Shown in pieces: positions 356 to 16,218 of a stretch of 32,000 nucleotides of DNA (positions within the stretch are counted from its first letter, which is position 1; every line of letters begins with the position of its first letter). Made by a program: the position numbers and the translations under genes. The stretch lies in contig JAWAHN010000003.1 of assembly GCA_038889235.1 (NCBI GenBank), positions 413,703 to 445,702 of the forward strand. Direction: 5' to 3'. The notes under the pieces are model-generated. The model worked only from the letters and a program-made list of their open reading frames with translations. It made no database searches and was not told the DNA's origin. This DNA comes from Candidatus Jordarchaeales archaeon. Lineage in GTDB: Archaea; Asgardarchaeota; Jordiarchaeia; Jordiarchaeales; Freyrarchaeaceae.

Positions 356-2169
356 CCGGCCCCCGCCACGTATCTGAAGTAGTCTTCAAATGTAAGCTCA
401 ATCCTTGGCTCAACCTTGTAAACCTTGAACCCCTCCGACTCCAAGCGGCTTAAAATCCTGTTCAAAACCACCCTATTATCCTTTCCTTCAACAAGTATCT
501 TGTAGTATGGTCCAACTCTGAAAACGTGAGCGACACCTTCAACGCTCTTTATTACGTCTTCCGCCCTTGGATCGTCCTCCTCCAGCACGAGGCCTATAGC
601 GTAACCGTTTCCAGGCAGCTTAGAAACGAGCTCCTTCGGTGTCCCAAAGTCCATGAGCCCCTTCCCCCTTACGAAAACAGCAACTTTGTCGCAGTACTCC
701 GCTTCGGAGGGGTAATGTGTTATTACAACGAGCGTTGTACCATATGTCTCGTTGATCTTCTCCAGGTAACTCCAGAGCTCGTGTCTTCTAACAAGGTCCA
801 AGCCGCTTGTCGGCTCATCAAGGAAGAGGATTTTCGGGTAGTGGACGAGAGCTATTGCTATGCTAACCCTTCTTTTTTCCCCACCGCTTAGCTCCTCTAC
901 TTTCATGTTTCCCTTGTGGAATATGTCTAGCTCTTTCAGGATTCGTTTTCCCCTTTTCACCAGCTCGTCTTCTGGAATCCCGTACTGTCTCCCGAAGTAG
1001 ACTATGTTCTCCATCGGAGTGAAGTTCTCATACATCCTGCTTAGGTCTTGTGGAACGTAGCCTATTAGTGGGGCGACAAACTCCTTCCTAGACGGGGGAA
1101 AACCATATATGAGGATTTCCCCAGAGTCTGGTGTTATCTCGCCTATCAGCGCCTTCATACAGGTGCTTTTCCCACTCCCAGACTCACCAACTATCCCTAG
1201 GATTTCTCCTTCCCTCAAGGAGAAAGATACGTCCCTTAAAACAGTTTTCCCGCTATATGAAACTGTGAGACCCCGCACCTTTAAAGCATACTCATTGGAG
1301 GGGACCATTTCATGTCTCGGTGTTAGGACTACCTTGCTGGCGGCGACATCAACTATTCTCGAGCTCTCAGATACCCTTAAAAGCACGGTTATTGTTTGCT
1401 CCACAATCTCCCTTACTTTTCTCCGCACCCTGGCTGCAGCCGCGCTACTCGTGACAACGCTTAGCCCGCAGCGGCTTAGCAGCAGGCGGACGTTTTCCAG
1501 CATTCTCCTAAAGTAGAAGTTAACGAGGAGTATGAGAACTTTTCTCGCCAGAAACTCAAGCTGGTATCTCAGTGACGGACGTCCAACCGACACTAAGACA
1601 CCCTTTAGCTCGCGCCCCCCTATTACGCCTTTGTTCACGGACATTACGAAGAACTTTTTTAGAGGATTGTCCTCAACCACTAGAATTTCGCCTTCACCCG
1701 TGAAGTCGGTGTTGCTGTGAAGCCACACACCTTCCACAGTGCAGTGAACTTTCATCAGTGGGGTAACTTTCCGAAGCCACTTGACAGCGTGGCTGAGCTC
1801 GCTGCCGTCAAAGAACTTAAGCTGAGAGGTGGACTTCTTCAGCCTGTTCCTGAAAACGATGTTAGCCGCCTGAACGTCGCACTTAGAGCGCGGCCCACCG
1901 ACGGTGATGACGACGCCTTTCTCGATGCGCTTACTTCCACGCACACCGTGGTCTAACATCACTACAAAAAACTTCCTGAAGGGGCGCGAGTAAACTTTCA
2001 ATACGCGGCCCGTGCCCCTAAACGATTCACCGCTCTTCCGCCAGACGCCATTAAGTACGACGTCTATGATGTTTCCTTCCCTCTCCTGGCACCATTTAAC
2101 GGCACGGGCAATCATCCTCCCAGTGAAGAAGGCTTCCTCGGAGAAGCCCTTAGACGACATGTCAACCAC
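352..2169 (-). CDS. ABC transporter ATP-binding protein (ABC-2/DrrA-like) with an N-terminal extension of two tandem TrmB C-terminal-like subdomains
   Basis: Walker A GESGSGKS, signature LSGGEKRR, Walker B ILFLDEP and a DrrA-like C-terminal domain. The first ~215 aa are two ~95-aa repeats. The start may be ATG at 2160 rather than GTG at 2169. Confidence 0.9.
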   Translation of the reverse strand: MVDMSSKGFSEEAFFTGRMIARAVKWCQEREGNIIDVVLNGVWRKSGESFRGTGRVLKVYSRPFRKFFVVMLDHGVRGSKRIEKGVVITVGGPRSKCDVQAANIVFRNRLKKSTSQLKFFDGSELSHAVKWLRKVTPLMKVHCTVEGVWLHSNTDFTGEGEILVVEDNPLKKFFVMSVNKGVIGGRELKGVLVSVGRPSLRYQLEFLARKVLILLVNFYFRRMLENVRLLLSRCGLSVVTSSAAAARVRRKVREIVEQTITVLLRVSESSRIVDVAASKVVLTPRHEMVPSNEYALKVRGLTVSYSGKTVLRDVSFSLREGEILGIVGESGSGKSTCMKALIGEITPDSGEILIYGFPPSRKEFVAPLIGYVPQDLSRMYENFTPMENIVYFGRQYGIPEDELVKRGKRILKELDIFHKGNMKVEELSGGEKRRVSIAIALVHYPKILFLDEPTSGLDLVRRHELWSYLEKINETYGTTLVVITHYPSEAEYCDKVAVFVRGKGLMDFGTPKELVSKLPGNGYAIGLVLEEDDPRAEDVIKSVEGVAHVFRVGPYYKILVEGKDNRVVLNRILSRLESEGFKVYKVEPRIELTFEDYFRYVAGAG

Positions 2170-13786: not shown

Positions 13787-14580
13787 TTCAACCCCTTTAA
13801 GAGGAGGTCTGGCATCGTATCCCCTCTGAGCCCGAGACGCAACGTTTCGAGCGACACCACGTCCTCCGGGTGAATGTTACCAAGGTTAACGTCTGGACCA
13901 AACCTCTTAATCAGCCACACTTGTTGAGACCTTAGTGGAGCCTCCCATATGATCTTCTCGTGTGGAACGGCTTGCACGATTGACTCGACAAAGTCCTTCT
14001 TCACGTCCCCCTTCGCGTCATAGGGCCCTATTCCGATGCCGCTCTCCCTTGCTTCGACAACAACGTAGTCAGCCCCGGCTTCGAGTTCACGCTTCATCAG
14101 CTCAACTCTTTCCGTGAGGGGGATGGATGCGTCCTCCTCTGGCTTCTTCTTTCCAACCTCGGTGATCACAGGGTTAAAGCCAAACCTTTTAGCCAGCCTT
14201 AGCAGTCCAAGCTTTTCTTCAACATTCATTCTAACAATTCCGTTCGAGATTTCAAGCGAGGAAAAACCTAACTCGCGCAGGAAAGAAAGAAACTCCTCAA
14301 CCTTATCTCTGGCGTAGGCAGCCTCCACGCTCGATCCGCCTGGGAGCGCCATCACCCCAAACTCCTCACAAAGCTTAATCTTCTCCTTCACAACATTCAG
14401 GGGCATGATGAGCCAAGTGCACCAGCCAAACTTCCAAAGGTCAACGTACTCGCCCGCAGCCTCCAAAACACTACGCATTTCCGACACACCAATACCACGG
14501 TCGATTACCAAAGTTAAACCGCGCGACCTAGGTTTTGAGCACCGCTTCACGAGGGAGAGCTCAAACAACTGGGGACACAT
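13783..14580 (-). CDS. comA: Phosphosulfolactate synthase
   Basis: KPRSRGLTLVIDRG, VDLWKFGWCT, LEISNG, EVGKK, VVVEARESG, IIWEAP, VNLGNI, LETLRLGLRGDT. RBS GGTGGT. Confidence 0.95.
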   Translation of the reverse strand: MCPQLFELSLVKRCSKPRSRGLTLVIDRGIGVSEMRSVLEAAGEYVDLWKFGWCTWLIMPLNVVKEKIKLCEEFGVMALPGGSSVEAAYARDKVEEFLSFLRELGFSSLEISNGIVRMNVEEKLGLLRLAKRFGFNPVITEVGKKKPEEDASIPLTERVELMKRELEAGADYVVVEARESGIGIGPYDAKGDVKKDFVESIVQAVPHEKIIWEAPLRSQQVWLIKRFGPDVNLGNIHPEDVVSLETLRLGLRGDTMPDLLLKGLK

Positions 14581-14644
14581 AGCACCACCCGACCCATACT
14601 ACCAAAAAAATCGCCATTAAAATCTAGCGCGAAAGAAGGAAGGG

Positions 14645-14728
14645 AAAGGGCATCCCCCTGCTAGGGGGCGGTCCCCACCCCCGCTGGACCTTTCAGGGGA
14701 TGAGTCATCCCCAGCCCGGGAACCCTTT
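14645..14728 (-). promoter_or_regulatory. SECIS element (eukaryote-type core) in the 3' UTR of vhuU
   Basis: Minus strand: GCTGGGG-ATGA-CTCATCCCCTG-AAA-GGTCCAGC-GGGGGTGGG-GA-CCGCC-CCCTAGC. AUGA at 14705-14708, AAA at 14691-14693 (11 nt after the core), GA at 14672-14673, 9-bp upper helix, and lower helices GCTGGGG/CCCTAGC, TCCC/GGGA and AAAGGG/CCCTTT. Confidence 0.75.
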
Positions 14729-14876
14729 AAGACTCGCTCAGCTCAATAGTCTTCTCAGCGATTTTCTCGCCCTTGTGGTTGACGACAACCAGGTGGGCGG
14801 CACAACCAAGTCAGCAGTCGTAAGCCCGCATGATAACCTCAATCAAGTTTAAGAGTTTAGGATCCAACTCCACCAT
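14727..14876 (-). CDS. vhuU: [NiFeSe]-hydrogenase small selenopeptide subunit VhuU (49 aa, Sec at codon 22)
   Basis: Manual translation MVELDPKLLNLIEVIMRAYDC-U(TGA 14811-14813)-LGCAAHLVVVNHKGEKIAEKTIELSES*. This matches the hydrogenase L2 motif (RAYDPxxxCxxH). GGAGGT RBS at 14886-14891. The upstream large subunit lacks this motif. Confidence 0.92.
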
Positions 14877-14895
14877 AAGGTTCAAACCTCCCTAA

Positions 14896-16218
14896 CTACT
14901 TAAACCAAGGCTCCGGGAACTTAAGCTTCTCGTGAATTCTTTCCTCCAGAACCTGCTTAGCTGCGACCAACATCGACTTTTCAACCGCGGCGATGTTGTT
15001 GTTAGTCGCCACGATAAGGTTCGCCTTCCTTATTACACCTTCATCGTCAGTCCAATAGTTGTATATCAATGTTCCACGTGGCGCCTCGACGATAGCTACA
15101 CCGTTACCCTCCCTTGGACGCACGTCGGCACGCTTAACATCGGAGCTAACTATCTCAGGGTCTTCTAGGAGCTTCCTGGCTTTCTCTATGGCTTCCATTA
15201 GCTCGACTATCCTAGCCCAGTTGTAAGCCAGCGTTGCGTGGCATGGCCTCCCAACAGCGTCCCTGAACTCCTTAAGCAGCTCCTGAGCTCTGGGAGTCTC
15301 CATCTTGTCAGCTACGTTGAGCCTAGCTAGTGGGCCGGCTCGCCATATACCTTCGGGGTACCCTGCAGGCTTGAAGAATATGTGTGTCGCGTAGGAGTGA
15401 GGAGCAACGTGCTCGCCAACATACTGCAAGTAGTCTTTCTTCGGGAAGTCTGCCACAATCTTACCTTCAGGGTCCATAACCCTGACGGTTGCTTTCCTGT
15501 CGTAAATTGTGTGAACACCGTTAACATTCAGCCCAACATAGTAGGTTGGAACTACGCCAAGCTTCGTGATCACGTCCAAGTAGCCTTCAACAACTTTCCT
15601 CGCAACTTCAATAGTGAAGTCCATAAGTCCCTCTGCTTCGTCGATGAGCTTTAGCAGCCTGTCCCGCTCCTCCTCAGTAAGCCTTTTCGCTTGACCGCCC
15701 GGAACACCAGTCACCGGGTGAACTGAGCGGCCTCCGATGGTCTTAACAATCTCTTGGCCAATCCTCATCAGAGCGATGGCTTTCTTGACAGCGTCGGGCA
15801 TATGCTTGAAAACACCTACAAGGTTTCTAATCGACGGGTCGGCGAACGGTCCAGCGAGGAAGTCCGGGGCGGCTAGAGCGTAGAAGTGTAGAGCGTGACT
15901 TGAAATCTGCTTACCTTGCATCATCAGGTCTCTAAGCTTCACGGCAGCGCTGGGCGGTTCAACATCCCATGCTGCTTCAACAGCCTCAACCGAGCAGACG
16001 TGGTGGGGCACGGGGCATATGCCGCAGATACGTGGCGTCAGTATTGGTGCTTCTTCAGCAAGCCTGCCCTCAAGGAACTTTTCGAACATACGTGTCAGCG
16101 TAACACAGAACTTAAGGTCCTTTACTCCGCCTTTCTCGTCCAGCTCGATTACCACATTCGCGTGTCCTTCAAGCCTTGTCGCAGGCTCGATAACAACAGT
16201 CTTTTCCTTCTTGCTCAT
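14896..16218 (-). CDS. mvhA: F420-non-reducing (group 3c) hydrogenase large subunit, split type lacking the C-terminal L2 motif (VhuA/MvhA)
   Basis: EPATRLEGH, L1 motif PRICGICPVPHH, GPLARLN, VEAPRGTL, ATNNN. The protein ends at ...FPEPWFK without DPCxxC. Confidence 0.93.
   Translation of the reverse strand: MSKKEKTVVIEPATRLEGHANVVIELDEKGGVKDLKFCVTLTRMFEKFLEGRLAEEAPILTPRICGICPVPHHVCSVEAVEAAWDVEPPSAAVKLRDLMMQGKQISSHALHFYALAAPDFLAGPFADPSIRNLVGVFKHMPDAVKKAIALMRIGQEIVKTIGGRSVHPVTGVPGGQAKRLTEEERDRLLKLIDEAEGLMDFTIEVARKVVEGYLDVITKLGVVPTYYVGLNVNGVHTIYDRKATVRVMDPEGKIVADFPKKDYLQYVGEHVAPHSYATHIFFKPAGYPEGIWRAGPLARLNVADKMETPRAQELLKEFRDAVGRPCHATLAYNWARIVELMEAIEKARKLLEDPEIVSSDVKRADVRPREGNGVAIVEAPRGTLIYNYWTDDEGVIRKANLIVATNNNIAAVEKSMLVAAKQVLEERIHEKLKFPEPWFK

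Follow-up and report, generated by a model that had tools for sequence, protein, structure and literature searches.

The window, a 32,000-nt stretch of DNA (positions 413703-445702 of contig C3 in genome G000), belongs to a hot-spring member of the Jordarchaeia whose genome amounts to 2.14 Mb in 8 contigs and is 95% complete. On its minus strand lie in turn an all-Cys mvhD/vhuD (17575-17159; PF02662), vhuG (17144-16236; PF01058), vhuA (16218-14899; PF00374) and vhuU (14876-14727), the 49-codon selenoprotein subunit of [NiFeSe] hydrogenase. VhuA shows 89% identity with its counterpart in Ca. Jordarchaeum sp. LHC_1308, 83% with those in ‘Jordarchaeia archaeon QC4’ and in the Thermoproteota-labelled record S9B3_HD70, 70% with that in Ca. 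Jordarchaeum madagascariense and 68% with that in a complete Freyarchaeia chromosome, and the matches to Ca. Jordarchaeum and Freyarchaeia identify the host as an Asgard archaeon of the class Jordarchaeia. The public metagenome-assembled genome ‘Thermoproteota archaeon S9B3_HD70’ (JAPDJY010000006.1) has a vhuA-vhuU-SECIS locus too, and its genome (G004) is placed in the same family as the present one; its ‘Thermoproteota’ label is probably wrong.

The best family match of vhuU is to NCBIfam NF041786, VhuU (E 9e-16), with 57.4 bits lying under the 70-bit cut-off. Its translation runs to a TAA at 14729-14727 and, when the TGA at 14813-14811 is read as Sec, contains ...YDCULGCAAH..., i.e. the motif D-C-U-L-G-C-A-A-H. 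A single in-frame TGA at the Ni-ligand position of vhuU was found in 19 Asgard genomes, 41 related genomes having been searched. The D-C-U-L itself (14811-14822), with Cys beside Sec where D-P-U is usual, occurs in 18/18 Asgard VhuU sequences examined; it is a trait of the family and no peculiarity of this gene. Within the coding region, some 15-50 nt past the Sec UGA, there is another hairpin (14800-14765, minus strand) that recurs in most Asgard orthologues, many of which have shuffle z values reaching -2 to -5, and that shows one apparent compensatory change within the genus (GGUUG/CAACC versus GGUCG/CGACC).

Past the stop codon the transcript has the parts of a selenocysteine insertion element (SECIS), all on the minus strand. 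The AUGA of the 5' side of the core (14708-14705), which the original prediction had put about 20 nt past the vhuU stop, stands 18 nt past it. It is followed by the 5' strand of the upper helix P2, CUCAUCCCC (14704-14696), by a 13-nt apical loop, UGAAAGGUCCAGC (14695-14683), that starts UGAAA and whose unpaired AAA (14693-14691) begins 11 nt after the core, by the 3' strand of P2, GGGGGUGGG (14682-14674), and by the 3' side of the core, GA (14673-14672) with C14671. P2 thus has 9 bp, two of them G-U, and no mismatch. The predicted upper helix, adenines and opposing GA are all where they had been said to be, and RNAduplex of the flanks gives the lower helices too, as GGGC/GCCC and AAGGG/CCCUU. 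The distance from stop to core is a trait of the genus: its vhuU genes end in UAA 18 nt upstream of the core, unlike those of every other lineage sampled, in which the UGA of the core is itself the vhuU stop codon.

The original prediction had staked itself beforehand on conservation of the core among orthologues, and when 18 Asgard vhuU 3' ends are aligned with MAFFT, all 18 have the core UGA (the base before it being A, C or U), and the 3' side of the core is GAC or AAC, again in 18/18. The C that follows is invariant; the invariant MAFFT column falls at 14670 in the present sequence because the Freyarchaeia stem is 1 bp longer. The proposed covariation check has an equally clear outcome, with compensatory changes at 7/7 scored P2 pairs across the 18 loci and 90.5% of cells paired. 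When P2 is taken together with P3, the hairpin that follows it (see below), 90.9% of cells are paired, none of 500 shuffles reaches the observed covariation score, and slid controls drop that score from 0.759 to 0.30 or lower. The changes can be followed even among close relatives, from CUCAUCCCC/GGGGGUGGG here to CUCGCCUCC/GGAGGCGGG in sister genome G001 and CCCGCCUUC/GGAGGCGGG in the other sister genome, both of which have AA as their 3' core. RNAalifold on the vhuU alignment recovers P2 and P3. An independent family, 16 elements behind mvhD, has compensatory changes at 9/9 P2 pairs. The core would probably form the tandem sheared G-A pairs of a k-turn, and a kinked geometry and the binding of a factor are what these conserved bases would suggest.

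What kind of SECIS is this? The published description of Asgard type I elements has a GA_[G/A]A core, a stem of 7-15 bp, a loop of 8-20 nt and a location near the 3' end of a selenoprotein gene (PMC11227280; PMC4989117). The present element has the core (5'-GA_[G/A]A-3', usually AUGA_GA; here AUGA at 14708-14705 and GA at 14673-14672), a 9-bp stem with no mismatch and two G-U pairs where up to two mismatches are allowed, a 13-nt loop (UGAAAGGUCCAGC) that lacks a ministem and whose adenines near the start are unpaired, and a position 18 nt past the vhuU stop where -30 to +600 nt from the 3' end of a Sec-UGA gene is allowed. (In Freyarchaeia the orthologues form a CCC/GGG ministem and are hence type II-like.) By the stricter lokiSECIS definition (Mariotti 2016), with a 9-bp stem, an 11-nt loop and an ultraconserved last G, it falls outside, since its loop has 13 nt and ends in C14683; that of G001 has 11 nt and ends in U, and the Loki-like relatives G037, G027 and G017 fit the strict definition exactly. 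Taken with the Asgard host, the covariation and an empty search for the methanogen alternative, these features bear out the call of a eukaryote-type AUGA_AA_GA SECIS rather than the GAA_A kind of methanogens, and of a further instance of the kind described from Lokiarchaeota, with a jordarchaeal host. The apical GAAA to which attention had also been drawn is indeed there; it is the conserved loop start, kept as [U/C]GAAA or AAAA in the vhuU alignment (the AAR motif), and no vestige of a methanogen GAA_A bulge. Since Sec use with eukaryote-like SECIS elements has already been reported for Jordarchaeia and Freyarchaeia (PMC9723677, PMC11227280, PMC11291895), PMC11227280 covering the frhA/VhuU family and PMC11291895 VhuU in Freyarchaeia, its occurrence in an archaeon is no surprise: the element is a true SECIS, its kind is a known one and to be expected in this lineage, and the call was right but is not new.

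A search for the same motif behind other TGA-containing genes had been suggested, and a hand-written pattern search combined with reading of the upstream frames yields five further elements, so that the design is found behind every UGA-containing gene detected in the genome: vhuU, hdrA, two mvhD, selD and a CC/Se-like open reading frame. On contig C1 the cores lie at C1:748701, 16 nt past an hdrA with two UGA; at C1:749303, 25 nt past an mvhD with two UGA; and at C1:85548, 15 nt past the stop of the CC/Se-like frame, which has one UGA; one element, at C1:441637, overlaps the end of another hdrA-mvhD pair and is shared by both genes, and a further one (C1:554238) follows the Sec-containing selD. 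Behind the Cys forms of hdrA and mvhD that lie in the window this design is missing. When the 18 vhuU elements were made into a covariance model, it matched nothing but its own query in this genome, being too gene-specific to reach other SECIS elements, and the link to the other five therefore rests on the pattern search.

Several of these genes are of interest on their own account. The two Sec hdrA-mvhD pairs (G000:C1:746705-749400 and C1:439245-441700), with two UGA codons in each gene, differ in arrangement: in the first each gene has its own SECIS, while in the second a single element, overlapping the mvhD end, is common to the two abutting genes, the shared form being the only one reported from Lokiarchaeota. 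The CC/Se-like frame is an unannotated ORF of 112 codons (G000:C1:85197-85535; MRFVLTEKA...VYSURGSRIEV...) with one in-frame UGA and, behind it, a SECIS and second hairpin; its match to NCBIfam NF041239, CC/Se motif family (seleno)protein, is weak (E 1e-4, under the cut-off), and that family is absent from the Asgard selenoproteins named in the accessible text of the Asgard Sec literature. In selD (HGUACK; G000:C1:553189-554101) a 31-nt insert comes directly after ...NATSDVY, with AKGATEIVGF... continuing in another frame. Sister genomes have inserts of 34 nt and of 30 nt, the latter with an in-frame TAA, and compensatory changes preserve an inner hairpin of the insert (ACACAGCC/GGCUGUGU versus GCGCAGCC/GGCUGCGU). 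The C-terminal open frame of selD is 251 aa in most of the Jordarchaeia and Freyarchaeia genomes searched (256 aa in G002, 191 aa in G001) and 323-330 aa in other full-length Asgard matches. The insert is a candidate small intron of a protein-coding gene, or else another recoding event.

The conserved unit extends beyond the hairpin. Immediately past GA-C there is a second hairpin, P3 (CCCCCU/AGC/AGGGGG, 14668-14654), seen by alignment, RNAalifold and covariation, and both are enclosed by the lower helix P1, with P1a formed by AAGGG (14727-14723) and CCCUU (14644-14640) and P1b by GGGC (14717-14714) and GCCC (14651-14648). The last pair of P1b is C-G in the present genome, U-A in G002 and U-G in G001. 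All told, alignment, folding, covariation and duplex energies delimit an RNA unit at 14727-14640 that is larger than the hairpin, and P1 and P3 are predicted to make of it, with P2, a three-way junction of k-junction topology. P3 is seen in 18/18 vhuU elements, with the GC of its loop invariant throughout and stems as varied as CCCCC/GGGGG, GGCGU/ACGCC, CCUUU/AAAGG, GGCCC/GGGCC and ACCU/AGGU. Under a strict definition (a stem of at least 5 bp and GC[AG] in the loop) it accompanies 6/6 elements of the genome, as against 7.1% of random genome positions and 16/345 other pattern matches, examples being CUGGCU-AGC-GGCCAG, UGGCCC-...AGCG...-GGGCCA, CCCCAC-AGCA-GUGGGG and UGGCGGU-AAUGC-ACCGCCA. Across Asgard relatives the strict count is 35/49 (mvhD 13/16, hdrA 6/6, selD 5/9, vhuU 11/18), most of the remaining elements departing from the definition by a stem of 4 bp or a loop with GCC/GCU. 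Main texts on Asgard SECIS models (PMC4989117, PMC11227280 and a 2026 review) describe core, upper stem and loop, with neither a junction nor a following hairpin.

Variable spacing led MAFFT to misalign, and RNAalifold run on its alignments missed P3 in the mvhD set and P1 in an extended vhuU set; P1 was therefore tested by comparing the duplex energy of each 5' strand with its own 3' strand to that with strands of other lineages. The self duplexes average -12.98 kcal/mol versus -7.28 kcal/mol for the cross-lineage ones, and 0/5000 permutations were as low. In the lineages with the core UGA as stop, the 5' strand of P1 is coding and the 3' strand matches it, with GAUUGG/CCAAUC in one case and GAUCGG/CCGAUC in another.

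Beyond the unit come a TTTTAAT box (14622-14616) and a T7 tract (14610-14604), the latter possibly an archaeal termination signal, and then, on the same strand, comA (14580-13783; phosphosulfolactate synthase, PF02679, E 2e-88) and comB (13786-13103; 2-phosphosulfolactate phosphatase, PF04029, E 9e-52). The comA-comB pair stands behind vhuU only in the three genomes of the present genus in which vhuU was found, and neither in the sister genus nor in Freyarchaeia, synteny holding within the genus only. From gene order, vhuU and comAB may share one polycistronic mRNA.

Could P2 alone be the SECIS, with P3 and P1 unrelated features of the 3' end, transcript-stabilising or termination-associated, or a by-product of codon constraints on the 5' strand? 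For the published Asgard models (PMC11227280, PMC4989117) a core, an upper stem and a loop suffice. Within vhuU the two C-G pairs at the centre of P3 are all but invariant and so offer little covariation, T-rich tracts do lie behind the element, and RNAalifold missed P1 or P3 where MAFFT had misaligned. However, P3 is placed 0-7 nt past GA-C behind vhuU, mvhD, hdrA, selD and the CC/Se-like ORF, its stems unrelated from one family to the next and its GC loop recurring, its frequency among the elements of the genome is far above that at random positions, and the 3' strand of P1 co-varies with a 5' strand that is coding. Nor is archaeal termination known to require hairpins. An explanation by P2 alone consequently seems to us rather unlikely. 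That the whole might be a methanogen-type SECIS that merely contains AUGA is scarcely credible: the apical loop does contain a GAAA, and an operon with vhu, hdr and comAB looks methanogen-like, but the host is an Asgard archaeon, the GAAA is a conserved loop start, and a model of the methanogen element (eaSECIS-like: lower stem, GAA bulge, 3-6-bp upper stem, loop, A bulge) gave 0 matches on the minus strand in 14560-14760, by which pattern test this candidate is refuted.

Single-sequence folding, proposed as a check, lends the SECIS no support. The RNAfold minimum free energy structure of 14630-14730 is another one, with an unremarkable z of -0.78: at 37 C it has -45.2 kcal/mol compared with -36.8 for the SECIS fold (hairpin and next hairpin forced), a difference of 8.4 kcal/mol, and, with AUGA sequestered in it, it keeps its lead at 60 and 75 C. 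Its hairpins, GGGGAUG/CAUCCCC and GGGGGUGG/CCGCCCCC (14711-14664, minus strand), occur in the present genome only and are not kept in sister genomes. Such stability might be taken as the mark of a conformational switch, an AUGA-hiding fold competing with the SECIS fold and tuning Sec insertion or read-through into comAB, yet for G001, G002 and most other relatives the minimum is the SECIS shape, the energy models leave out G-A pairs and protein binding, and no observation suggests a ligand or signal; a switch is distinctly improbable. More improbable still is a functionless chance match in G+C-rich intergenic DNA. The unremarkable z would fit it, as would the 350 matches in the 2.14-Mb genome to a loose AUGA-stem-AA-GA pattern (17 with a score of at least 8) and a high-scoring match in the window (~1977-2030, plus strand; G000:C3:415679; UGA, 12-bp stem, AA) with no selenoprotein gene upstream and no second hairpin, which is just such a chance match and serves as negative control. 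Against it stand the covariation and invariant core bases across 18 genomes, the exclusive tie of the element to UGA-containing genes, 4 of the 17 best genome-wide matches lying over the ends of such genes or within about 25 nt after them, and the co-occurrence of P3. The support for a SECIS is comparative, with none coming from the folding of a single sequence. Rfam gave nothing relevant and no SECIS_1, whether for the whole window at gathering score or for 14500-14900 at E up to 10.

Is there machinery to read the signal? Most of it is encoded. SelB/EFSec (306 bits, above cut-off; open frame 487 aa) lies at G000:C1:350598 with SepSecS (412 bits, above cut-off) adjoining it, there is a PSTK-like gene (192 bits, under the curated cut-off), and selD is present, above cut-off, and itself contains Sec. 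A tRNASec was not found in this 95% complete genome by Rfam RF01852, ARAGORN or a hand pattern. The best RF01852 match, at 30.7 bits, is a tRNA-Leu, and in this genome plus five relatives (G001-G004, G006) the model gave sub-threshold matches only, to tRNA-Leu, tRNA-Met and another tRNA with anticodon CCU. ARAGORN at default settings reports 14 tRNAs in the 2.14 Mb, and at low stringency noise; the small number fits heavily intron-split tRNA genes. SBP2 was not seen, the PF01248 (L7Ae-family) matches being just two, in ORFs of 127 and 110 aa, so that L7Ae itself or EFSec would be the candidates for reader. The lack of SBP2 agrees with reports on Asgard archaea (PMC4989117, PMC9723677).

The reading that we prefer, and hold to be very likely correct, is that the minus-strand RNA of 14727-14640 serves vhuU as its SECIS, of the Asgard eSECIS-like type I, read by the Sec machinery and forming a junction unit larger than the hairpin. 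On this account the folded junction would stand on the mRNA some 105 nt downstream of the UGA at 14813-14811, where its G-A/A-G core and apical adenines would most likely be recognised by EFSec-GTP-Sec-tRNASec or by an adaptor. EFSec loaded with Sec-tRNASec would be recruited directly or via a SECIS-binding protein, and the complex would bring Sec to the ribosome at that UGA, which would then be read as Sec and not as stop. P3 and P1, for their part, may brace the kink or add contact surface.

A wider reading is more tentative, and we would sooner wager somewhat against it than for it, without thinking it far-fetched: that the functional Asgard Sec signal is not a simple AUGA hairpin but a k-junction-like three-way junction, in which P1 is often made partly of the last codons and the P3 loop carries a near-invariant G-C-(R); that P3 is a docking site or brace for the SECIS reader, be it EFSec or an adaptor; and that the loss of P3 toward eukaryotes marks the takeover by SBP2. 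On its own the element adds another to the Asgard SECIS elements, supporting the reading of UGA as Sec in vhuU of a Jordarchaeia genome, and it helps to correct annotation since vhuU and other UGA genes are easily missed. We know of no binding protein of an archaeal SECIS, and a junction found across the phylum with an invariant loop motif behind vhuU, mvhD, hdrA and selD offers a concrete RNA target for finding the reader. It is this junction architecture, which would sharpen the view of the origin of the eukaryotic SECIS, that is the part worth following.

The closest known relatives are the Asgard eSECIS-like type I and lokiSECIS elements of vhuU/frhA (Huang et al. 2024, PMC11227280; Mariotti et al. 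2016, PMC4989117), with which the present one shares the AUGA_GA core, the 9-bp upper stem, the adenines early in the apical loop, the location right behind a selenoprotein gene and a setting devoid of SBP2. The replacement of GA by AA reported for Loki VhuU recurs here in the sister genomes, and the frhA ‘lower stem’ [U/C]GG_C[C/U][A/G] has its counterpart in the GG before the core and the C after GA. It departs from lokiSECIS in the length of its loop and in having C for the ‘ultraconserved’ last G, and from the texts of the lokiSECIS papers in that the unit includes P3 and P1. The order of P2 3' strand, GA-C, P3 and P1 3' strand is that of a k-junction as known from the TPP riboswitch (Wang, Daldrop, Huang and Lilley 2014, PMC4005666), P3 being the extra helix between GA-C and the 3' strand of P1; the likeness is one of secondary-structure topology only, between a recoding signal and a riboswitch whose junction linker lengths differ. 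Eukaryotic SECIS elements (RF00031, SECIS_1) have the same AUGA ... AA(R) ... GA order 3' of the coding region and the same archaeal/eukaryotic-type Sec machinery (EFSec, PSTK, SepSecS), but the upper helix is shorter here, a third helix separates the 3' core from the lower helix, SBP2 is lacking and Rfam gives no match even at E up to 10. Unlike the SECIS of Methanococcales and Methanopyrus (eaSECIS; Peiter et al. 2025, PMC11881835), the present element is without the GAA_A bulge and the 3-bp G-C upper stem; the two kinds have in common a 3' UTR location and the families VhuU, VhuD, HdrA and SelD, and methanogen VhuD elements likewise carry AUGA and GAC/AAC (PMC4989117).
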